A stretch of 64,000 nt of DNA from Candidatus Thorarchaeota archaeon (GTDB lineage: Archaea; Asgardarchaeota; Thorarchaeia; Thorarchaeales; Thorarchaeaceae), in the NCBI GenBank assembly GCA_046482545.1, contig JAWOEX010000010.1:173886-237885 (forward strand), written 5' to 3'. Position numbers and translations under genes: made by a program. The notes under the pieces are model-generated. The model did not search any database. It was not told where the DNA came from and worked only from the letters and a program-made list of their open reading frames with translations. Shown here one piece after another: positions 7,439 through 63,128 of the stretch; positions within the stretch are counted from its first letter, which is position 1, and every line of letters starts with the position of its first letter.

Positions 7439-7875
7439 ACCCGTTTCTTACAGTTGAGTGAGTGGATCCAACTGAGGAAACTTCTGTGTTCCACCCTTCC
7501 CCTGCCAGCGTCACCGCCCCCAAGGTACCCGTAGGCCCTCGGGTCAGCAGGGGCTTTGTCCACGTTCACCGGAATAGGATTCCTCCCGCGGTCCTGGCTT
7601 CCTTCTCCTGTCGAACTCCGGTACATCACTCCCGGCGACAGCGAGTTCTTCCACAGTTCTTACCACGGCGTGGTCATGATCACCCACCTCAGCCTTGTCG
7701 CCGTAGCTGAGGAGATCCATCTGGACATGGTGAACAGCCGCGGACTCTCCAGGGTCTGATGGGACCCCTCGTTCGGAGAGTAAGGACTTCTGCTTAGAAG
7801 ACGACGTCTTCCTCACAGCCTTCGGGGCTGGGCGCTTCTCCCGTGGGGGAGTGGCTCACCGCCCTAGTCCTACTA
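7439..7875 (-). ncRNA. Putative TnpB omegaRNA scaffold (stand-alone copy B)
   Basis: Homologous to the region overlapping and downstream of the tnpB 3' end; TTTATTA box (7898-7904, minus strand) lies 23 nt upstream of the conserved agtaggac. Confidence 0.65.
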
Positions 7876-7997
7876 GACCGGACTCCCGTACTAGGCCTAA
7901 TAAACTCCCCTGCTTGAGAGAGAATCGTTACAGGAAATCTTACAGATATTTTACACTTTTCCACTCGGATTTTTTACGATTTTTGTAAAATTTACCC
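7439..7997 (-). mobile_element. Non-autonomous element B (left end plus omegaRNA/right end only)
   Basis: 7439-7870 closely aligns with 54640-55070 (3' end of tnpB and downstream); 7927-7997 matches the left-end hairpin at 62791-62859. Confidence 0.9.
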
Positions 7998-8007
7998 TTT
8001 CAAGACC

Positions 8008-8552
8008 TTTGTAAATCGTACAGAATCCTAAATAAATCAGCACAGTAGAGTGTAAGATTTCATCGAGCCCTTTTCGTGACCAAAAAGGAGTTTAGTAGAC
8101 AGACAACCGTACTGGATATCAGTAGGACCAGGCAAGTGGGCTAGCGCAGAAGCGCGAAGCACGCGGCTGAAAGATGTGAGGAAGTCCTGTGATTCTAAGC
8201 GGAAGTCCTTACTCTCCACAAAGAGAGCTTCATCGAACTCAGGAGGGTCCGCGGCTGTTCACCATGTCCAGATGGACCTTCTCATCTACGCTGACAAGGC
8301 TTATTCGGGTGATTGTGACCACGCCATGGTAAGAACTGTGGGAAACGTCGTTATCGCCGGAGTGACGACCCGGGATGACGACGGGAGGATGAAGCCAAGA
8401 CCGCAGGAGGAATCCCAATCCGATGAACGTGTGCAAAGCCTCTGCTTGCTCAAGGACTGAGAAGTATCTTGGGGCGGCGACCTTAGCAGGGGAAGGATGG
8501 AACACAGGAGTTTCCTCAGTTGGATTCACTCACTCAACTGTAAGAAACATGT
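8008..8552 (+). mobile_element. Non-autonomous element C, head-to-head with B
   Basis: 8011-8061 is the reverse complement of the left-end motif; 8120-8552 is homologous to the reverse complement of 54640-55070 and ends cactcaactgtaagaaacatgt|tatc. Confidence 0.9.
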
Positions 8553-16629: not shown

Positions 16630-17096
16630 GACAGCACTCGCTGGAGAGCATGGTTTATCAAATTCGATTATGGAGAAACACTGCTGGGATTGGATGATAC
16701 GCGGCTGAGCATCTATGATGTCGGCCACCTGATCGAGAGCAGGCAGCTCTATGATAGTGACACCAAGAAGTTGCATTCAATGTATGTCATCTTGAACAAG
16801 GTCAAGGACTTCTCTACCCAGGCTGACCTCTCGGAGTTCCCGCTGTTTGCAGAAAAACTCAGAAAGAGCACGGAGACCAAGCAACCCTCAAACAGCTGAC
16901 CGGGTGGTGGGCGTGAATGCCGGAGATCTGTTAAGCTCATGACACAACCTACAATCCCAACGTAGGTTGCTAGATTCCTGACATACGGGTAGGATATCAA
17001 CTTGGTGTATGCAGGATGGTCTATCTCCCACATGAGGTAACAGGAAATCTTACACTTCTATGCGCCGATTTATTTAGGATTCTGTAAGATTTCCAC
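16630..17096. mobile_element. Left-end-only remnant D, flanked by the 10-bp direct repeat CTATCCAGAA
   Basis: Homologous to ~62370-62859; ends in the left-end hairpin; repeat at 16620-16629 and 17097-17106; carries a gene 3' fragment (to 16899). Confidence 0.8.
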
Positions 17097-53903: not shown

Positions 53904-54639
53904 TCAATCTATCATTTTTTCCATGATGCATCCAAGTAGCTCGAAGCCCATACTTCGACATAATTCCAGTTCGATATCATGTTCGGCATGCAACTGAAAA
54001 TATAGACTGGAGCAGTCTTTCTCAGCAGCCCAGTGCACTGCCTGCGATAGAAGCATCTGGCCCGCGCCACTAGGAGGCTCTTCACCAACCGCGAAGTCAT
54101 AGATTGCAGCAGTCTTCTTGTTGTGTTTGGCACGACCTACCCATACGAAACCAACAACACCCTCATCGGGGGACTCAAGCACGAATCGCTGCTGATTGCT
54201 ACCAAGACTGAAGCGCCGCCGCAGAAGCTCTTCGTATCGTTTGACAATATCCGCATCAGAAGCATCTGTACTGAACAACACGAGCCTTCTGAACCTCCGT
54301 AACCCAAGCATCTCTACTCGCTTTTCATCCTGAGGTTCTTGCTCACGAACAATAAGATCAGGTGATTTTTGTAACCTCACATGTTTCGGTTCAATGACAA
54401 GCGGATAGGCACGATACGCGTAGCCCTGAGATTCATACAATTGCTGCGCGGGAAAGTTATGTTCATGTACGAAAAGTCCAATGTTCCGGCCAAGTGTCCT
54501 CGCATATTCTTCTGCTCTTGCGATTAGCTTTCTCCCAAGGCCCTTTCGACGGTACTCCTTGTCAACAATGATGTCGTATATCCACAGAGCGCGTTCGATA
54601 TCCCAGATTTCCCGTTCTGTTCGGAGTGCAATCCAGATA
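53904..54639 (-). pseudogene. 3' part of a tandem GNAT acetyltransferase split by element E
   Basis: IWIA|LRTER...IVDKEYRRKGLGRKL; joins in frame to 62872-63128 (993 nt in total). Confidence 0.9.
54628..54639. repeat. 12-bp direct repeat GCAATCCAGATA (partner at 62860-62871)
   Basis: Exact match at both junctions of element E. Confidence 0.92.
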
Positions 54640-55075
54640 ACCCATTTCTTACAGTTGAGTGAGTGAACCCAACCGAGGAAACTCCTGTGTTCCACCCTTT
54701 CCTTGCCCAGTGTCACCACAATACCAAGGCGCTACCCCCGGCCAAGCAAGGACTTTGACCGCCATCATCAGGACACGGTCCCTCCTGCGGTCTCGGCTTC
54801 TGTCTCCTGCCCTGACCCGGATACATCACATCCGGGGGCAGCGAGGTCTTCCACAGCTTTTGCCACGGCGGGGTTATTATCGCTCTGCCCAGTCTCGTCA
54901 CCGAAACCAGACAGGTCCAATTGGACACAGCGAACAGCCGCGGACTCTCCGGGGTCTGATGAGGACCCCTTTTTGGAGAGTGAGGACTTCTGCTTAGAAG
55001 AACGAGTCTTCCTCACAGCCTTCGGGGCTGAACCGTTCCCCCGTTCGGGGGTGGCCCACCGCCCTAGTCCAGTCT
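54636..55075 (-). ncRNA. Putative omegaRNA of element E, overlapping the tnpB 3' end
   Basis: Position typical of TnpB omegaRNA/reRNA; this is the block retained in B and C. Confidence 0.7.
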
Positions 55076-56447
55076 CATCCTTAAGTGAAGGAATGAGCGT
55101 AAGTAAACGACGTGCGATGTTGAGGGAGCCATTCCGGTCGGCGTTGGTGCGGAAGCCGCACGTGTGGCATACGAACAAAGCCTGTTTCGGCCGTACTCCC
55201 TTGTTGCCACACTTCCAGCACATTATCGAGGTCCAGTTTTCAGGCACCGCATGGAATCGGCTATCCTTGCCTTCCACTTCCCACCCGAGCTGTTCGAGTC
55301 CGTTTTTAAGCCCCTCGGTAATACGCGAGAAGCTCCACCTGTGCACCATACCCCTGAACTTGGAACCTTTGTAGTTGCCACGCCTAGCGGCATTCCGGAT
55401 ACCCTTGAGCCTCCCGATACCAACATAGAGCTGATACTGTTGGCTTAGCTTTTCGACATACGACAAGAGATCGCTGACGAGGGCCCGATCATAGGTCTTA
55501 GCCGCATCCGCCCGCTTCGTTTTGAGCTCCTTGAGCTTGCTGATCAACCCGTCACAGTCGTTCCCATTGCTCCTCCTGATATCGAGGTCGTGCTGGAGGT
55601 CCGCTATCCGCTCCTCATATTGGAGGAACACTTGGTGCTTCTCTTCCTGCCTGAAGTACCGGGTGCTTGATATTCTCTTCTCAGTAACGAGGGTCGTGCA
55701 TGCTGCACAATTGATACCCAGGTCAATACCAAGGACAGCAGGCGGTAACTCAGCATCCTTTATTTTCTCAATAGCGGTAAGGCGTATCGCAATAGCAGCC
55801 CACCACTTCCCATGCCGGTCGGTGAATACCTGTACAGCTTTAGGCTTCCCTCGATCCAGTTCCTCAAGGTGATAGGGTGAGGTTTTCAGGGGGATGCGGA
55901 GCCTGTCATGGATCCTGCGGCCTTCTGGTACAGAGTCCAGTGAATCACGGATGTCGAGCCACAGCCGCGCGATCGTCGTTTCGTGCTCAACAAGCTTCGC
56001 CCTGTAGGGAATGTACATCATCCGGGGAATCCGCCTTTCGCTGTTGGTCTCTGCAGGCCGGGAGGCCTTTCTCCACTTCTTAACGCGCAGGGCCAGGTAG
56101 CTCTCGTAGTTGGCTATAGCGATACGCCGACACTCTTGAAGTTCATTGGCTGATATCCGGGGAAACCGTGCTTTGAGGTCATGGTCAACTTCCAGTCTCT
56201 GTTCCTCACCATGAGCAACCCGCAAGGCAGTCATGGTCATCACATCGAGCTTGTTCTCATCGATGCGCTTCTTCGCCTTGCCTCTAAGCAGGTCTTCCTC
56301 GTTTTCTTCTATGATACCGAAGAATGCATGAATGACCCGTGAATCCCTTCCCGTGATCTGTTCCAATCGCTGACGACTGGAGCTGGTCATCTCTTTCCAT
56401 GCTATGGGAATCTTGACCGTAATCACAGGGGTGTTGGAGTCTGTCAT
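54768..56447 (-). CDS. tnpB: TnpB-family RNA-guided nuclease, 559 aa, rearranged RuvC-II
   Basis: LGIDLG (RuvC-I); VGIGRL where E is expected; VPENWTSIMCWKC; CHTC; NADRNGSLNIA (RuvC-III). Confidence 0.92.
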   Translation of the reverse strand: MTDSNTPVITVKIPIAWKEMTSSSRQRLEQITGRDSRVIHAFFGIIEENEEDLLRGKAKKRIDENKLDVMTMTALRVAHGEEQRLEVDHDLKARFPRISANELQECRRIAIANYESYLALRVKKWRKASRPAETNSERRIPRMMYIPYRAKLVEHETTIARLWLDIRDSLDSVPEGRRIHDRLRIPLKTSPYHLEELDRGKPKAVQVFTDRHGKWWAAIAIRLTAIEKIKDAELPPAVLGIDLGINCAACTTLVTEKRISSTRYFRQEEKHQVFLQYEERIADLQHDLDIRRSNGNDCDGLISKLKELKTKRADAAKTYDRALVSDLLSYVEKLSQQYQLYVGIGRLKGIRNAARRGNYKGSKFRGMVHRWSFSRITEGLKNGLEQLGWEVEGKDSRFHAVPENWTSIMCWKCGNKGVRPKQALFVCHTCGFRTNADRNGSLNIARRLLTLIPSLKDETGLGRWATPERGNGSAPKAVRKTRSSKQKSSLSKKGSSSDPGESAAVRCVQLDLSGFGDETGQSDNNPAVAKAVEDLAAPGCDVSGSGQETEAETAGGTVS

Positions 56448-56702
56448 GGGTATCGCCTATTTAAACCTCTAACCTGTTTCGGGGGTAGTTGAGTTCACTC
56501 CTCATGTAGTTTTGACCCGAGGTAATGAACTCATATTCTGATACAGCATAGTCATATTTAAACCTATTAAGAAGAAATATTAATTCAATATTTGATACTC
56601 TTCTAAGGTCATTAGAAACTCCCCAGTTTCATTTCTATACTTAACTATAATAAATAACAACCCGCAAAAAATATAAGAAAATAAACCCCCAGCGTACCAC
56701 CA
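56448..56702. promoter_or_regulatory. AT-rich divergent promoter region between tnpB and the 1410-aa gene
   Basis: Several TTTAAA/TATAA tracts between the head-to-head starts. Confidence 0.55.
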
Positions 56703-59700
56703 TTGTCAAGAAGTCGTGGACGGCCTTCAAAGGTCATGCCTAAACACCCAAACAAGGTGATCTCACTCGCGGTTCGCAGAGGCCTTTCTGCCGCTGTTGA
56801 ATTGCAGCGGAATATCCAGAATAAAAAAACTGAGAACCTCTATCGAAGTTCGCGTGACAGTTTGGCAGCCGCAAAGGATGTCTATTATCAGACCGTTGAA
56901 AGTGGTGAAGGCGACCACAAGTATATCATCAAGGCAGAGTCGACCATCAGGAAGAACCTCCTGAAGATGATCATGGAAAACACCGCCGCTTATGGGAACA
57001 CCGAAGTGAAACGTGTCAGGAACCCTCACGCGAAAGTTGGGCCGCTAAATCAGCGGTTCAATGTCCTGGGTGCCCAGCTCCGCAATTTTGGTATGACCCG
57101 GTACCTCTTCCCAGACCCCAAGTTGTTCCGTTATGAAACTCGGATAGTCGGAGAAAAAAGGAAGGAATACCGTGTAGCAGGATACCCTCCGGATTCCTAC
57201 GGTCCTCGCACTCCCCTGGTCCATCCGAATCTTCCGTCCCTTGACCTGGTCGACTCAATCAGGCACCACCTCGACTATTTCGCAGGCTACGCCTTCATCT
57301 ACGATATACCTCCAAGGGAGGCCGGCCGCTACTGGAACCTCTACCAGCTACGAGCCCGGCCCTATCTGGATTATTTATACTCCGAGTGCCTTATCGGAAC
57401 GAACGGGTTCAGAGGAGGAACCGATAGTATACTCAGGGAACTGAAAGAAGACGTTGAGTATCACTATGAAACCCGTCAAGGAGCACCAAGAACGGTCACA
57501 GAGTCCAAGCCAGAGAGGAAACCGACCCTGTCCACGGATATCTGTCGCAATTGGATTGAGGAGGCATACTCTAAGGGAATCACTCATGAGTCGATTGAAG
57601 AGTTTGAGTTGGTAGTCGAAGATGAGTCGCTGTTCCGGGAGGGCGATATGGCTAGGCTCTATTCTCGCCTAGAAGAGAAAGCCAGTAAGACTGGCTCACG
57701 GGTTCATGAATTTGTGTTCAGCCAATTAACCAGCCCCTGGTCGCTCCGTGACGCGATTACACGGGGTGACTCGTACGGAAGCAGCGACGGGTATCTCGTG
57801 TGTTTTGAGACCCCTCTCGATACAGAGAAAGGCAAAGGAAAAGCGGATGTGATCCTCTTGCGGCGGGTAGTATCTGAGCAGGGAAATCAAGCCCATTACC
57901 GACCGGTTATGGTGCTGGATTTGAAAACAAAACTGGGGCCCACTATAACACTCGGGATCAAAGACATCCACTCCGAAGTGGACTCAAAACGCACATTCGT
58001 GGAGCGAACCTTCCCGCCTGAGTATGCGTTCAGAAAGCAAGAGGAAGAGAAAAAGAGATACAAACGGGTCATAGACTACCGCTTCGGTCGGAGGCCGCTG
58101 GATGACGAGGAATGGGAAGCATTCATTCAGGCCATGCCGGACGAAGACACACAAAAACAGATAGACGCCTATACAGCTGCAGTTTCGGATATATACAAGG
58201 AATTGACCGACTGCGGGGAGAAGCCCGCCATCTTCACAGGTACAATGCTTGTTGACGTGACCGAAGACATAAGACTGCTTCGAGACATGCTCCGCGGGTT
58301 GATCATCAATGCCTACGAAGAAGTCGCAAAGGGGCCTCTGAGGGAGGGCAGGGTCGTGCTTGAACCAAAGGTCCGTGGCCACAAGCCCCGTGTCGCTCTG
58401 GTCATGAACGAACAAGAACAGCCGGTGAAAGCTACCGAAACGCCAATACAACCTTCATGGCGACCCCCATACAATCCATTAACACTGGCACAATCTCACG
58501 GAAGGCGATTCCTCCTCTTTACATCAGCAGCATCACCAACCTCTTCCGGTATTTCAGCGGCGTGGCATGCGAAGTACTACCATGGGCTACAGGAAATCAA
58601 GCAGATGACTGAAGAACACGAGTACGATGATATCGTCTGGATAGACCTGGCCAGCGATTTCATAGAACCGGAGCTTCGTGAAGCTCGGTTGTTGCTCCGA
58701 CCCTACTCAAACGATGAGGAAGACACTCGGCGGGCCCACCGGCAGGATGTCCAGGAACTTGTTGATAGGATTTCGTTCAGGGGGCTTTTTGACGAAGTTG
58801 ATTCGTTCATCTTCCGCAATGGTGCCGCTGAAGCTGTAGGAAAACGATTGGAATCGCTCCCGCAAGAAGACTGCTTGATTGTAGTCTCCGGGATGGATAC
58901 AATCCGATACGCAACACCTGAGCCTTATCGTTGGCAATTGAATCCCCTCCTCAGAATCATACTTTCACAGCTCCCAACTTCGGACTCAGCCACCATCTTC
59001 TGGTTTGACTCACCTGTACCAGCAGCAGAAATGTCCACCCCCTATTCAAAACGGTCACTGCTCCCGTTCTATGACTCGTCTCCCCTGCGGGGTGTTGTCA
59101 GCCAGATCATCTGGAACCTGCCTGTGGCGCCGCGGGATGAAGTCCTTCCCGGGGAGTGGTTCTTGCCTTATCCCACAAAAACGCCGATGTACGACGATAT
59201 TAGAGTCATAGTCAGGCAAAAGAAAACAGGCTTCTCGATAGAATCGACCCTCGTTCCCCTGCTTATGGAGTGGTCGAAAAGATTCGATAACAGGGGCATG
59301 GGCAAAGTCTCCCATAGAAATAGCTTTGCTGAAGTAGTACCCGATGCCTCGGTCAGGGCCCGGATGGAAACCCTTGCGCTTTCTCTGATCCCCTGGCTCG
59401 TCGACCTGCATCCGACCCAGAAGATGGACGCCAAGCACGGATTCCAGTGTATTCGTCAAGAGTACGAACAAATGCTTTCAGAATACTCGATTCCCCAGGA
59501 CATAATCACCTTTGACCGGTCGGTACTGGCGACTCCTCTTGGCAGTGCACCTTCTCTCCTTAAACGCGTGCGAATCCGGCCTGACGGTGCTGGAGGGGGA
59601 AAGGCCTTTCAACCGTTGTATGTCGGTGTCATCAATTATCCCCGGATATACCATGAATCACAGAAACTGAAAACCAAACCTTGGCGGCTCCAGCAGAAAC

Positions 59701-60935
59701 CATCCCCAGCACAAGACCAGGTAGACCTTGTCGATATTCGCTTCGTGATGACCCTTTCATCATATGGAGAAGAGTATGAGTGGCGTGCTGTCCTGGACCC
59801 GAGTACGACAGCGGGCATCGCATTCGGGTTGTTTCCGACTGGTCAAACCAAGGAGGGCATTGAATGGGGCCTCCAGCGACTGGATTTGGTTCAGCAAGCC
59901 GCAAAACGATTGCATCGCTTCAATGACGTAAAGATATACATCCTCAGAAGGAAAAGGAACCCGAATTCGGATGCAGAGAAGAGCCCCGGGTGGTGGATGT
60001 GGAGGCAGACTGATGGACCATCGGCCTGGACATTTGTCGGTACGTGTGACTATGTCCTGCGTCGGAGTTCAGCTGACATCGCTCTGCAAGGTTTTGGCAT
60101 CAATCCAAGGGATCCCCCGGGGGGAGTTTCGGTCCCAGATATGCCGTTCCCTTCGGGTTTCGAAACTGGTCTGCGGAGCGCTATTCGCGACCTGTCGGAG
60201 AATCTTGGGAGGGTACAAGCGGTGAAGGTGCAGCTGCGTAAGTATGGTGAACGTTGTGCGGTCAAGTTCATAGACAGTGAAAGCGAGGAATCCCTTCACA
60301 CACTCCTACTCAACAATACAGTTGATGTCCTGAGGTTGCTCAAGTGGCCATGGACAGCGGGACGGCCACTGCGGGTGGGGAACCTGCACCTGACATGGAA
60401 CACGCTCCACGATTATTCCCGGATAGAACCAGACATCGACTTTGGAGAAGAGTATAGATTCCTAGAAAGTTACATGGTGAGCACCTCAAGGGGTTTGAGA
60501 CCGTCGCTCTCTCCCCTCATCGATGCTGCTGTGGAAGACTTACAACCAGAGCAAATCACCATCTATCACAATGAGGTGTTATGTCCCCTTACCAAAGACC
60601 CGAGGCTAGACCATGATGCCTGTTGGGCTGTGGAGCTGTCGCCAAGCAGCTGGCAGCTCTTGGGTGGCAAGAACACTGCCATTCACGAAGGATTGACAGA
60701 TACGCAGGTGAGAGAACTCATCGATACCCTAGAAGGGGCACTGGAAGGACAGCGAATCGCACTGACATTTGACCCTGGTAAAACCGATGTTGACAGACTC
60801 GTCTTCAGCGAAAGCGAAGTCATGCGAGAATTATCGGCAAAGCACAGGGGGATATCTATGACAAAGCACCATCCTGGTCATACTGTCCGCATCAAGATCA
60901 TGCGAGAGCGGTATGGGATTGAGGGAGATGAATGA
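56703..60935 (+). CDS. 1410-aa protein: AT-hook, Cas4/RecB-like PD-(D/E)XK nuclease, degenerate RecA-like domain, unknown C-terminus
   Basis: SRGRPS; GSRVHE...FETPL...GKADVI...LDLKT...QIDAY; LLFTSAASPTSSGIS...IVWID...LIVVSGMD. Confidence 0.8.
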   Translation: MSRSRGRPSKVMPKHPNKVISLAVRRGLSAAVELQRNIQNKKTENLYRSSRDSLAAAKDVYYQTVESGEGDHKYIIKAESTIRKNLLKMIMENTAAYGNTEVKRVRNPHAKVGPLNQRFNVLGAQLRNFGMTRYLFPDPKLFRYETRIVGEKRKEYRVAGYPPDSYGPRTPLVHPNLPSLDLVDSIRHHLDYFAGYAFIYDIPPREAGRYWNLYQLRARPYLDYLYSECLIGTNGFRGGTDSILRELKEDVEYHYETRQGAPRTVTESKPERKPTLSTDICRNWIEEAYSKGITHESIEEFELVVEDESLFREGDMARLYSRLEEKASKTGSRVHEFVFSQLTSPWSLRDAITRGDSYGSSDGYLVCFETPLDTEKGKGKADVILLRRVVSEQGNQAHYRPVMVLDLKTKLGPTITLGIKDIHSEVDSKRTFVERTFPPEYAFRKQEEEKKRYKRVIDYRFGRRPLDDEEWEAFIQAMPDEDTQKQIDAYTAAVSDIYKELTDCGEKPAIFTGTMLVDVTEDIRLLRDMLRGLIINAYEEVAKGPLREGRVVLEPKVRGHKPRVALVMNEQEQPVKATETPIQPSWRPPYNPLTLAQSHGRRFLLFTSAASPTSSGISAAWHAKYYHGLQEIKQMTEEHEYDDIVWIDLASDFIEPELREARLLLRPYSNDEEDTRRAHRQDVQELVDRISFRGLFDEVDSFIFRNGAAEAVGKRLESLPQEDCLIVVSGMDTIRYATPEPYRWQLNPLLRIILSQLPTSDSATIFWFDSPVPAAEMSTPYSKRSLLPFYDSSPLRGVVSQIIWNLPVAPRDEVLPGEWFLPYPTKTPMYDDIRVIVRQKKTGFSIESTLVPLLMEWSKRFDNRGMGKVSHRNSFAEVVPDASVRARMETLALSLIPWLVDLHPTQKMDAKHGFQCIRQEYEQMLSEYSIPQDIITFDRSVLATPLGSAPSLLKRVRIRPDGAGGGKAFQPLYVGVINYPRIYHESQKLKTKPWRLQQKPSPAQDQVDLVDIRFVMTLSSYGEEYEWRAVLDPSTTAGIAFGLFPTGQTKEGIEWGLQRLDLVQQAAKRLHRFNDVKIYILRRKRNPNSDAEKSPGWWMWRQTDGPSAWTFVGTCDYVLRRSSADIALQGFGINPRDPPGGVSVPDMPFPSGFETGLRSAIRDLSENLGRVQAVKVQLRKYGERCAVKFIDSESEESLHTLLLNNTVDVLRLLKWPWTAGRPLRVGNLHLTWNTLHDYSRIEPDIDFGEEYRFLESYMVSTSRGLRPSLSPLIDAAVEDLQPEQITIYHNEVLCPLTKDPRLDHDACWAVELSPSSWQLLGGKNTAIHEGLTDTQVRELIDTLEGALEGQRIALTFDPGKTDVDRLVFSESEVMRELSAKHRGISMTKHHPGHTVRIKIMRERYGIEGDE

Positions 60936-60937
60936 GG

Positions 60938-61558
60938 TCACTTTCCAGAGCGTTGCCCCCTGATGATTTCGGTCGCCCCGAACCTATGCGCGTGCCGTTC
61001 TTCCCCCTCTTTCTCAAACTGGGTGAGTCCCCAGTACATCGTAGAGACCATGAGCACTTTCTGATCATTCAGAGGATCTGCAGAGTATCCGAATGTGATA
61101 TCTGGACTCTTCTCTATTCCCCCTGAGAGAGCTGCAGGTAATGATATCGTTGCCTTTATCGCAGTGACGGACGGGTCTCCTGGGGGCTGTTTGCATATGT
61201 AGCCCCAGAACCGTGGGTACAGTCCGATTGGTCCCTGAATCCTGTGGATGGCAGTGGGTACGAGGAGCAAGGAGCAGTCAACCAAGTCGTCGCTCCAGGT
61301 CAGCTCCTCGTACTGTGAATCAGTATCGAGGAACATAATCTCGTCCATACACTCGTAGACGAACATCTGCCAGAGCGCCTGTTCTTCCCCTAGATCTTCT
61401 ACTTCGTCACAGTCTTCGTACATTTCGGGATACCAGTCAAGATCGACATCGATCGCCTTGCCAGTCATGACTTTGAGTACGTACGGGCTGTCCCCGTCGG
61501 ACCCCCTTGGACCCATGAACTCGCTGAGATCGTCTGAGCCTGTATCGTCGCTCATCAC
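60938..61558 (-). CDS. Acidic hypothetical cargo protein
   Basis: 206-aa ORF with GGAG upstream, convergent on the giant gene. Confidence 0.7.
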   Translation of the reverse strand: MMSDDTGSDDLSEFMGPRGSDGDSPYVLKVMTGKAIDVDLDWYPEMYEDCDEVEDLGEEQALWQMFVYECMDEIMFLDTDSQYEELTWSDDLVDCSLLLVPTAIHRIQGPIGLYPRFWGYICKQPPGDPSVTAIKATISLPAALSGGIEKSPDITFGYSADPLNDQKVLMVSTMYWGLTQFEKEGEERHAHRFGATEIIRGQRSGK

Positions 61559-62290
61559 ACATTCTCTCCCATAGAAGAAACTCGTGCCGGGTCGTGAGCT
61601 GAAATTGCGTTGGTATGATATTGAATTCCCAAGTCGTTGAGTCTATATTCAGCCCGGGAACGTAGACGATTTGATGCTATGCTCCCGCTTCCCTGATACT
61701 GGTGAGGCTTTCGGTTTCCATGTCGTTTCGTAATCGCTTGAGTAGTTCCTTTATTTGGTTCTTTCAGCATAGGTAACCTGTTCATAGGACATACCCTCTG
61801 ATAGTATAGCTACTAGAAACTGGCTGGCATCAATCTTTCGGTTTTCATACCCGGGGTGTATGAGGGTTTTTGAGAACCCATCTGAGCGGTCATACTATTT
61901 TTTACATATTCATTTCACCTTAAAACTTCTAGATTTTACTAATCAGACCTATAAATGCCCAGATGAAAAGACCTTTGCAGTAGTTTCCCGGTCTCCACGG
62001 TTTTTTTAGGCGCCATGCTTGTCATTATGATAGTACAAAGCCATATTCCACTGAGAAATCTGCAATCCGCATGTGTGCATGGAACCCGGGAAAGTCACTC
62101 CGCAGGGATAGGCTGAAATTGCACCCTTGAAGGTGTCCAGCTCAGCTTGGGTATCGCTGATAAGAACGTTCTATCAAAGCTTGGTGGGTTGTGACCTTGA
62201 AGGACTAGAAGAACCACTTCCTGAAAATATCACTCTCAACGTTGCAATGCACATATTCTCTTGAGCTTGGAGTCTGGTTACTATGGTGGA

Positions 62291-62360
62291 GTTAAGAGAA
62301 AATCATACAAGCATTGCACATCTGGAACTGTTGATTTTTTGAGGATTTTGTAAAATCCAT
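62291..62360. repeat. Internal degenerate second copy of the left end
   Basis: gttaagagaaaatcataca...gattttttgaggattttgtaaaatcc versus ggtaacaggaaatcttaca...gatttatttaggattttgtaaaattcc. Confidence 0.7.
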
Positions 62361-62790
62361 TGTGTTCCAAGAGACAAGACTCGCTGCAGAGTATGGTTTC
62401 TTGAACCTAATTGTGGAGAAATACTGCTGGGACTGGATGATACGCGGCTGAGCATCTACGGTGACGGCCACCTGATCGAGAACTAGCAGCCCTATGAATG
62501 TGACACCAAGAAATTACATTCGACGTACATCATCTTGAACAGGGTCAAGGACTTTTCTACTTGCGCTGACCTCTCGGAGTTCACGCTGTTTGCAGAGAAG
62601 CTCAAAGAGAACAAGGAATAGAAGAAGACGAAACAGACCTTGAGCAGCTGGCGGGGGAGGCAGGTGTTAAGGCTGTAGATTTGTTACGCTCATGACACAG
62701 TCTATACTCTCAATATGGGTGGCTGGATTCCTGCCATACGGGTAGGATACCGACTTGGTGTATGCAAGATGGTCTATCTCCCACACGAGG

Positions 62791-62859
62791 TAACAGGAAA
62801 TCTTACAGAAATCTTACACTTCTATGTGCCGATTTATTTAGGATTTTGTAAAATTCCGA
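62791..62859. repeat. Left-end hairpin with GAAATCTTACA repeats
   Basis: ggaaatcttacagaaatcttaca...ggattttgtaaaattcc: two direct copies and one inverted copy. Confidence 0.85.
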
Positions 62860-63128
62860 GCAATCCAGATATGACCGGCATAGGTTCCATCCTCATCTTC
62901 AGCAATGAAAATGCGACAGTCATCACGCTCCAAGTCATAAGAGTCCACAACTTCATCCTTGAATATCTGGAATATCTCTTCCTCTGACCTGTCAGGATAT
63001 TTTTCCTTCAACTCGATATAGTGCCTATCATTAGTTGATCTAGCAGTTTCAAAGGACATGCGATAGAAGTTCTGCATATCTTCCTCATCTTTTCGTCGGC
63101 GGATATTGAATTGCATTATGGACGCCAC
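62860..63128 (-). pseudogene. 5' part of the split GNAT gene
   Basis: MASIMQFNIRR...IFIAEDEDGTYAGHIWIA, then runs into element sequence and stops. Confidence 0.9.

Follow-up and report, generated by a model that had tools for sequence, protein, structure and literature searches.

What moves an 8.2-kb element that carries a TnpB gene and neither an HUH nor a serine TnpA? The question is raised by a 64,000-nt stretch (hereafter the window, within which all coordinates are given) of a Candidatus Thorarchaeota genome (GCA_046482545.1, contig JAWOEX010000010.1), where such an element interrupts a GNAT gene. We read it as a recently inserted, composite aCas1-TnpB transposon of Thorarchaeota. The aCas1 domain of a giant fusion protein would move the element and its short derivatives, probably through an intermediate that keeps the hexamer of the right end, and TnpB would be an RNA-guided companion. 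We put the probability of this reading at about 0.65; we infer the transposase role of aCas1 and the mechanism from sequence comparisons and structure models. aCas1 reportedly comes from Makarova et al. 2020 (CRISPR J).

The insertion is real and splits the host gene cleanly. A 12-mer is present at exactly 54628 and 62860, and in silico removal of the element with one copy of it leaves an open 330-aa double-GNAT frame (GHIWIA|LRTER), as a preliminary description of this DNA had stated. A GNAT homologue from a related genome (locus L039) reads GHVWVAIRNSE across the junction position, so the empty site contains one copy of the junction hexamer, not zero. The preliminary description had also set the boundaries at 54628-62871 with a 12-bp repeat. 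The repeated 12-mer is there, but the junction repeat of the family is 6 bp, TCNNGA (TCCAGA in this copy), and the TA that follows the left repeat copy is the element's own first two bases in nearly all copies; the element therefore spans 54638-62869. Duplications of 12 and 8 bp were rejected as a family feature, since matches past 6 bp are at chance level (p 0.08–0.28, with 8 copies left out of the sister-genome set), although a few sites match over 10–11 bp. The 12 bp at this copy are thus a chance case. GC content is 51%–56% across most of 54500-61500, compared to 41%–46% in most flanking intervals, and the copy apparently inserted recently. It contains tnpB, a 1410-aa gene, and a 206-aa open reading frame (ORF), as originally listed. 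These are the only three ORFs above 200 aa accounted for inside the element, and none is PolB; what had been called decayed DNA holds an internal right end and a pseudogene of a giant paralogue. Pfam recognized TnpB and the GNAT protein.

The structure model indicates that the giant protein begins with a Cas1-type integrase domain in which catalytic-type residues are conserved. The 1410-aa ORF had no match in a Pfam search and none in a PDB sequence search, and its Cas1 identity was exposed by fold search alone. The catalytic domain spans residues ~15–245. When a model of residues 15–265 (pLDDT 90.5) was searched with Foldseek, the best nine rows were all Cas1, at weak scores (E 0.009–0.13). 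In an exhaustive structural search (VIA), the top 12 chains were all Cas1 or casposase, including casposase 6opm (Z 8.7–12.9), and the next fold scored 6.0. The match covers the helical catalytic domain only, the N-terminal beta-sandwich being absent from the giant, and an AT-hook-like RGRP motif lies upstream. Across 93 diverse homologues, E79, N116, H174, and R187 are invariant, D181 is kept in 92, and position 184 is D or E in all. Mapping of these residues onto Cas1 is by motif and a weak profile alignment, in which hhalign sets E79 on the Glu of the Cas1 "GIEA" motif and N116 on "DPvN" (E = 0.028, below significance). The catalytic residues of Escherichia coli Cas1 are E141, H208, D218, and D221 (PMC9939771). 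One distant giant homologue matches Pfam Cas1 at E = 0.005. With this domain, whose catalytic residues are intact, the element carries a candidate transposase, contrary to its earlier description as transposase-less, and the earlier idea that the giant is the likely mover gains a candidate enzyme.

Two further domains were identified in the giant. Residues 320–530 carry a PD-(D/E)XK nuclease signature of RecB/AddB type, assigned by sequence motifs and not by fold search, with residues invariant or nearly so in 96 homologues; the Atlas gave a weak PD-(D/E)XK lead. Of the previously suggested Cas4/RecB-like identity, only the RecB-like part stands, as a Cas4-type four-cysteine Fe-S cluster was not found and the homologue alignment has no conserved Cys in residues 321–620. 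Residues ~597–855 match RAD51/KaiC (Foldseek E ~5e-5; VIA Z 11.5), and this RecA-fold domain is predicted to be ATPase-dead because its Walker A motif lacks the lysine. Against an 89%-identical orthologue that sits at another site, the Cas1, nuclease, and RecA domains show about two synonymous codon changes for each amino-acid change. The giant has 39 full-length homologues, with named ones from Thorarchaeota save one labelled Lokiarchaeota, and its homologues form 125 clusters at 50% identity. Two distant ones (proteins P0141 and P0145) are 2,200–2,350 aa long and end in TPR repeats.

This combination of genes has a published precedent. The aCas1-TnpB loci of Asgard archaea (Cas1H-Asgard-1/-2) were described by Altae-Tran et al. 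2023 (PMC10691335), who proposed aCas1 as their transposase and suggested as a possible guide a hypervariable region that lies downstream of tnpB, flanked by a conserved T and GTTCACTCA. By sequence, the element matches these loci as described in that main text: an Asgard host, TnpB beside a diverged Cas1, flanking repeats, and a hypervariable region with GTTCACTCA. Its own named homologues are Asgard, mostly Thorarchaeota, and hexamer repeats flank the copies. The new class of TnpB element announced earlier had therefore already been described. The junction analysis, short derivatives, domain map, and leader RNA are absent from the main text of PMC10691335. As far as the searchable literature shows, the exact ends and target consensus, the burst of derivatives, the polarity of the junctions, and the duplex between leader and arm are new.

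The genome (3.05 Mb, 98.9% complete) holds four full elements, this copy and three other tnpB and giant pairs, whose giants are 28%–32% identical. It also holds about 70 short derivatives. A genome-wide search recovered 69 left ends and 51 right ends whose terminal motifs are intact. Many belong to gene-less derivatives of ~550 bp, in which the omega-RNA block (54638-55070) is joined to the right end. The same derivatives occur in two genomes of the same genus, and an 88%-identical copy lies at a different site in another genome. The expected co-occurrence of tnpB with the giant gene held in all 52 related loci assessable for flank (some of them redundant), where the two are head to head; 30 of these have a TnpB of the 560-aa type and 22 one of ~700 aa.

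No HUH (Y1) TnpA was found by tblastn in the element or in 54 related loci, and the separation from IS200/IS605 and IS607 made in the preliminary description holds. Searches of this 98.9%-complete genome for a serine recombinase, a tyrosine integrase, or IS110, which did not extend to DDE families, gave no match. The sole Y1 TnpA of the genome (locus L041; genome G000, contig C24:6134-6460) is truncated just before the catalytic tyrosine helix and runs into a host gene. All three same-genus genomes carrying derivatives encode aCas1 giants, and none of the three has a match to IS607-type TnpA or IS110. Recombinases of IS607 type were identified only beside the ~700-aa TnpB group (five loci), which lacks the terminal motif of this group, and in 0 of 30 loci of this TnpB group. 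We consider it likely that the Cas1-like domain is the transposase, moving full elements and, in trans, the ~550-bp derivatives by binding short TCTTACA-type motifs at both ends.

The choice of target was assessed from the junction hexamers. Left and right hexamers are identical in 21 of 38 paired elements, compared to 3.6 expected by permutation (maximum 11 in 20,000 permutations), and the sister genomes follow the same trend (8 of 15). Mapped on the right-end tree, the right hexamer needs 24 changes, below the shuffled minimum of 26, and in the paired set both hexamers track that tree (p about 0.007). Of the 17 copies with mismatched hexamers, 14 have a right hexamer closer to that of the sister element, and in one the left is closer. 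The left hexamer strays further from TCNNGA than the right in 14 cases versus 2, a count to which a bias in register applies (see below). One particular right end, linker and hexamer included, is shared by three genomes, and no clear target-adjacent motif (TAM) was seen past the right end of the element at its insertion sites. By these comparisons, the right hexamer seems to travel with the element and the target hexamer to match the carried one. The excess of identical hexamers and the 14:1 polarity of mismatches suggest targeting directed in cis and not a plain duplication.

This copy appears from its sequence to be a composite of two related elements, because an older internal right end and a piece of another giant paralogue lie within it. 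From the TCCAGA-type hexamer onward, the broken 3' end of the other paralogue is followed by that element's right end, and homology to three other genome copies begins exactly at the TCCAGA hexamer. In a sister genome, a derivative of this subfamily that arose by deletion terminates at ~62357, at the decayed right end. On the simplest reading, an older relative was the original insertion site of the inner element, which afterwards moved by means of the outer end; ends of different subfamilies would therefore be interchangeable. An origin of the decayed DNA as a remnant of the radA-like cargo of some relatives was considered and rejected. The 206-aa ORF has no Pfam family and no Atlas match; it is 43%–44% identical to homologues in L002, L003, and L072, and homologues are present in 12 of 30 group-1 loci.

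TnpB is predicted from its sequence to be a catalytically intact RNA-guided nuclease. Its catalytic positions are D242, G345 (the canonical Glu position), the alternative E403, and D437, all invariant in 29–31 homologue matches; a rearranged RuvC-II site of this type has been described and is regarded as active (PMC10691335). On the tnpB strand, 54638-54960 has a covarying RNA structure of 80 consensus pairs, 43 of them with two-sided changes (19 loci). From this structure an omega-RNA is predicted at the tnpB 3' end; the block has no Rfam match. Upstream of tnpB, a conserved unit comprises, in order, a TATA-like box, a hairpin, a GAGTGAAC-type repeat, and a second TATA-like box. In 24 loci, pairing of this leader repeat with the hypervariable arm averages −23.9 kcal/mol, compared to −10.0 for the arm with its own 3' partner in cis. 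Cognate pairs are better than all 20,000 shuffled pairings whether or not the invariant core is removed, the tnpB strand is favored in 21 of the 24 loci, and compensatory sets occur (e.g., GCAC/GTGC and GGAC/GTCC). These patterns suggest that the hypervariable arm is an anti-repeat rather than a guide, its pairing with the leader repeat being like crRNA:tracrRNA. It is somewhat probable, judging by the covariation, that the duplex forms in vivo. The partners could meet in trans, one of them as a small RNA, or could be opposite ends of a single long transcript. Within this genome, the first 14 nt of the leader "spacer" have no match outside their own locus. A complex prediction for the TnpB core and the C-terminal 411 residues of the giant scored 0.00 and carries no weight either way.

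These observations can be combined into a tentative mechanism. The right hexamer would be part of the element, and an intermediate, most simply a circle, would join it to the left end. Integration would then take place next to a target hexamer that matches the carried one, and the flanking repeat would therefore represent a donor-target match and not a filled-in duplication. We hold this part at slightly under even odds. More speculatively, the RecB-like nuclease may process the ends and the dead RecA fold may help pairing. The omega-RNA arm would pair with the leader repeat, and the simplest purpose of this would be that TnpB regulates itself at the tnpB promoter or that the choice of guide is controlled. 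The role of TnpB could be regulation or retention, and its participation in integration is not required.

Several points weigh against this reading. Similarity to Cas1 is not significant at the sequence level (the hhalign value of 0.028 and an empty PDB sequence search), and the Cas1 dimerization beta-domain is missing from the giant. A transesterase has no obvious need for donor-target homology, and known casposases make a true duplication of ~15 bp (PMC9939771). Mismatched copies are older (neighbor identity 0.84 versus 0.895, p = 0.002), and part of the mismatch is therefore due to decay; no hexamer signal was found in the whole-derivative tree or the left-end tree. The register of the right hexamer was picked among 3–4 offsets to fit the consensus, which favors the right side. 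The loci in the covariation test are related.

The alternatives are not mutually exclusive with the transposase assignment. An unlikely but substantial one keeps the same element and transposase and assumes an ordinary, casposon-like 6-bp duplication, the apparent inheritance of hexamers reflecting target tastes of paralogous giants, decay, and gene conversion. Cas1 chemistry gives true duplications (PMC9939771), four divergent giants share one genome, mismatch grows with copy age, and the full-copy tree is without signal. However, decay should affect both hexamers alike, yet the polarity is 14:1. The excess straying of the left copy, with its register bias, and the shared right end of three genomes also argue against it. 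An improbable alternative resembles a CRISPR-associated transposon (CAST): TnpB, with an omega-RNA read across the circle junction such that carried hexamer and linker form the guide, would lead the giant to matching targets. The strict head-to-head pairing of the two genes, the retention of exactly the omega-RNA block in derivatives, and the match of target to carried hexamer, which extends to 10–11 bp at a few sites, are consistent with this, and classical homing fits poorly because no clear TAM lies past the right end. Against it, matches past 6 bp are not significant, and the hexamer position that varies most would fall at position 2 of the guide, which does not resemble a seed. In addition, TnpB is catalytically intact by sequence, whereas the Cas12k of CASTs is catalytically inactive. 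Movement of the ends in trans by an IS607-type serine recombinase, with TC-NN-GA containing a central overlap dinucleotide and the giant as cargo, is very unlikely: IS607 does use a circular intermediate and a matching overlap dinucleotide (PMC4058570), NN agrees in 26 of 38 copies, and five related ~700-aa-TnpB loci carry such an enzyme, but NN differs in 12 of 38, the enzyme was found neither in the 30 loci of this TnpB group nor in this genome or two sister genomes, and the ~700-aa group lacks this group's terminal motif.

The element is casposon-like in its likely enzyme and IS605/IS607-like in TnpB and derivatives, and is a member of neither group. It shares with casposons (PMC9939771, PMC6977970) a Cas1-family integrase with E/H/D residues as likely transposase, and several of its relatives sit at tRNA genes. 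Unlike casposons, it has no PolB, only a short imperfect inverted motif in place of long terminal inverted repeats, and a junction repeat of 6 bp instead of about 15 bp; its Cas1 has no N-terminal beta-domain and forms a fusion with nuclease and RecA folds, and it carries TnpB. Like IS200/IS605 and IS607, it has TnpB, an omega-RNA that overlaps the tnpB 3' end beside the element end, and gene-less derivatives, and it apparently inserts without true duplication. It differs from them in its size of about 8 kb, in the lack of an HUH or serine TnpA, and in its target motif, which is on the omega-RNA side with no clear TAM upstream of the tnpB-proximal end. The hypervariable region, published as a possible guide for aCas1-TnpB loci, here covaries with the leader repeat and looks like an anti-repeat. 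As in the split crRNA:tracrRNA systems of TranC/Cas12f, summarized in a preprint (bioRxiv 10.64898/2026.03.27.714800), the right-end RNA apparently consists of an anti-repeat whose repeat is encoded separately. The element differs from these systems in having one repeat in the tnpB leader and no CRISPR array, in a post-repeat sequence that is the element's TATA-like box, and in a split repeat that lies within a still-mobile transposon.

The aCas1-TnpB class was proposed from gene neighborhoods, and the searchable literature contains no test of it. This genome offers experiment-ready material. The copy is intact and apparently recent, its empty site is verified, and its ends are exact; about 70 insertions give a target consensus, mini-elements occur naturally, and the catalytic residues are named. 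Should the carried hexamer direct targeting, a Cas1 integrase would be acting differently from CRISPR Cas1 and casposases. Should the leader repeat prove to be a true crRNA-like partner, archaea would provide a case of the RNA split that is believed to have come before type V CRISPR. It is doubtful, on present sequence comparisons, that both hold together, with the site set in cis by the carried 6-bp end, which either DNA pairing or a TnpB guide would read, and TnpB using a split tracr/crRNA-like guide. If true, Cas1 integration, a Cas12 ancestor, and repeat:anti-repeat RNA would be united in one living transposon, and an edit to its end could give it new targets.

Table 1. Features of the element and its flanks (window positions), and related loci. 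L and C labels denote loci and contigs, and G000 this genome.
Feature	Position	Strand	Basis or remark
Interrupted double-GNAT gene, 3' part	53904..54637	-	Target hexamer TCCAGA (54632-54637) forms the last 6 bp on +
Element, 8,232 bp including right hexamer	54638..62869	.	~70 genomic copies; empty-site reading
tnpB-distal end and predicted omega-RNA scaffold, overlapping tnpB 3' tail	54638..55070	-	Genomic copies; covariation
"Hypervariable" arm and GTTCACTCA motif	54660..54682	-	Behaves as anti-repeat; motif described in PMC10691335
TnpB, 559 aa, rearranged RuvC-II type	54768..56447	-	Pfam PF07282, E = 4e-11
tnpB leader	56448..56562	-	Conserved unit; 18/18 leaders listed
Leader second TATA-like box	56458-56465	-	Putative promoter
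Leader crRNA-like repeat, GAGTGAAC-type, ending like element terminus	56470-56500	-	Duplex test
Leader hairpin, conserved	56488-56532	-	z = −2.4
Leader TATA-like box	56555-56562	-	Putative promoter
Giant aCas1 fusion protein, 1,410 aa	56703..60935	+	ORF; homologues
Cas1 catalytic (helical) domain; E79, H174, D181, D184	56745..57437	+	Structural match; conservation
PD-(D/E)XK nuclease, RecB/AddB type; H335, E369, D382, K408, Q486-x3-Y490	57660..58292	+	Sequence motifs
RecA/RadA/KaiC-fold domain, Walker A without lysine	58491..59267	+	Foldseek, VIA, motif
206-aa accessory ORF	60938..61558	-	Limited to this subfamily
Older decayed internal right end, hexamer TCCAAG at 62366-62371	62289..62371	+	71% repeat of outer end
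Pseudogene piece from the C-terminal end of another giant paralogue (C28-type; 65% aa identity; one stop)	62367..62591	+	
Outer right end	62787..62869	+	Repeated AATCTTAC motifs, inverted left-end motif copy, 10-bp linker, hexamer TCCAGA (62864-62869)
Interrupted GNAT gene, 5' part	62870..63128	-	ORF; empty-site reading
tRNA-adjacent elements	G000 C23:124209-124302; L013:7806-7900; L062:377-470; L071:7890-7935		
Relatives with RadA-like cargo	L072:14830-16435; L074:14882-16469; L043, L044, L048, L049		
IS607-type recombinase loci in sister group	L019:7899-8516; L020:14913-15539; L021; L058; L060		

Other copies lie in the window. Two ~550-bp derivatives are tail to tail at 7439-7990 (+) and 8016-8552 (−), with ~25 bp between anchors; a further left end is near 1330 (−), and a right end with a giant remnant is near 17089 (+). 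Many contigs of the genome break inside elements with near-identical ends (ends of C9, C23, C28, C34, C40, and C41 of G000), which collapses the youngest copies and makes the copy number an underestimate. The terminal 30 nt of the element (54638-54668, −) begin with GTTCACT and contain TAAGAAA, recalling the ends of the type I-F CRISPR repeat; the best Cas1 fold matches are also type I-F, which may be a coincidence. Several full elements start just 3' of tRNA-Gly(TCC) or within tRNA-like sequence, as casposons do, and have atypical ends. In some relatives, the 206-aa homologue is followed by a full RadA-like paralogue and a membrane-protein-like ORF, probably cargo. In the ~700-aa-TnpB sister group, an IS607-type serine recombinase often follows the giant gene, giving two candidate transposases per locus.

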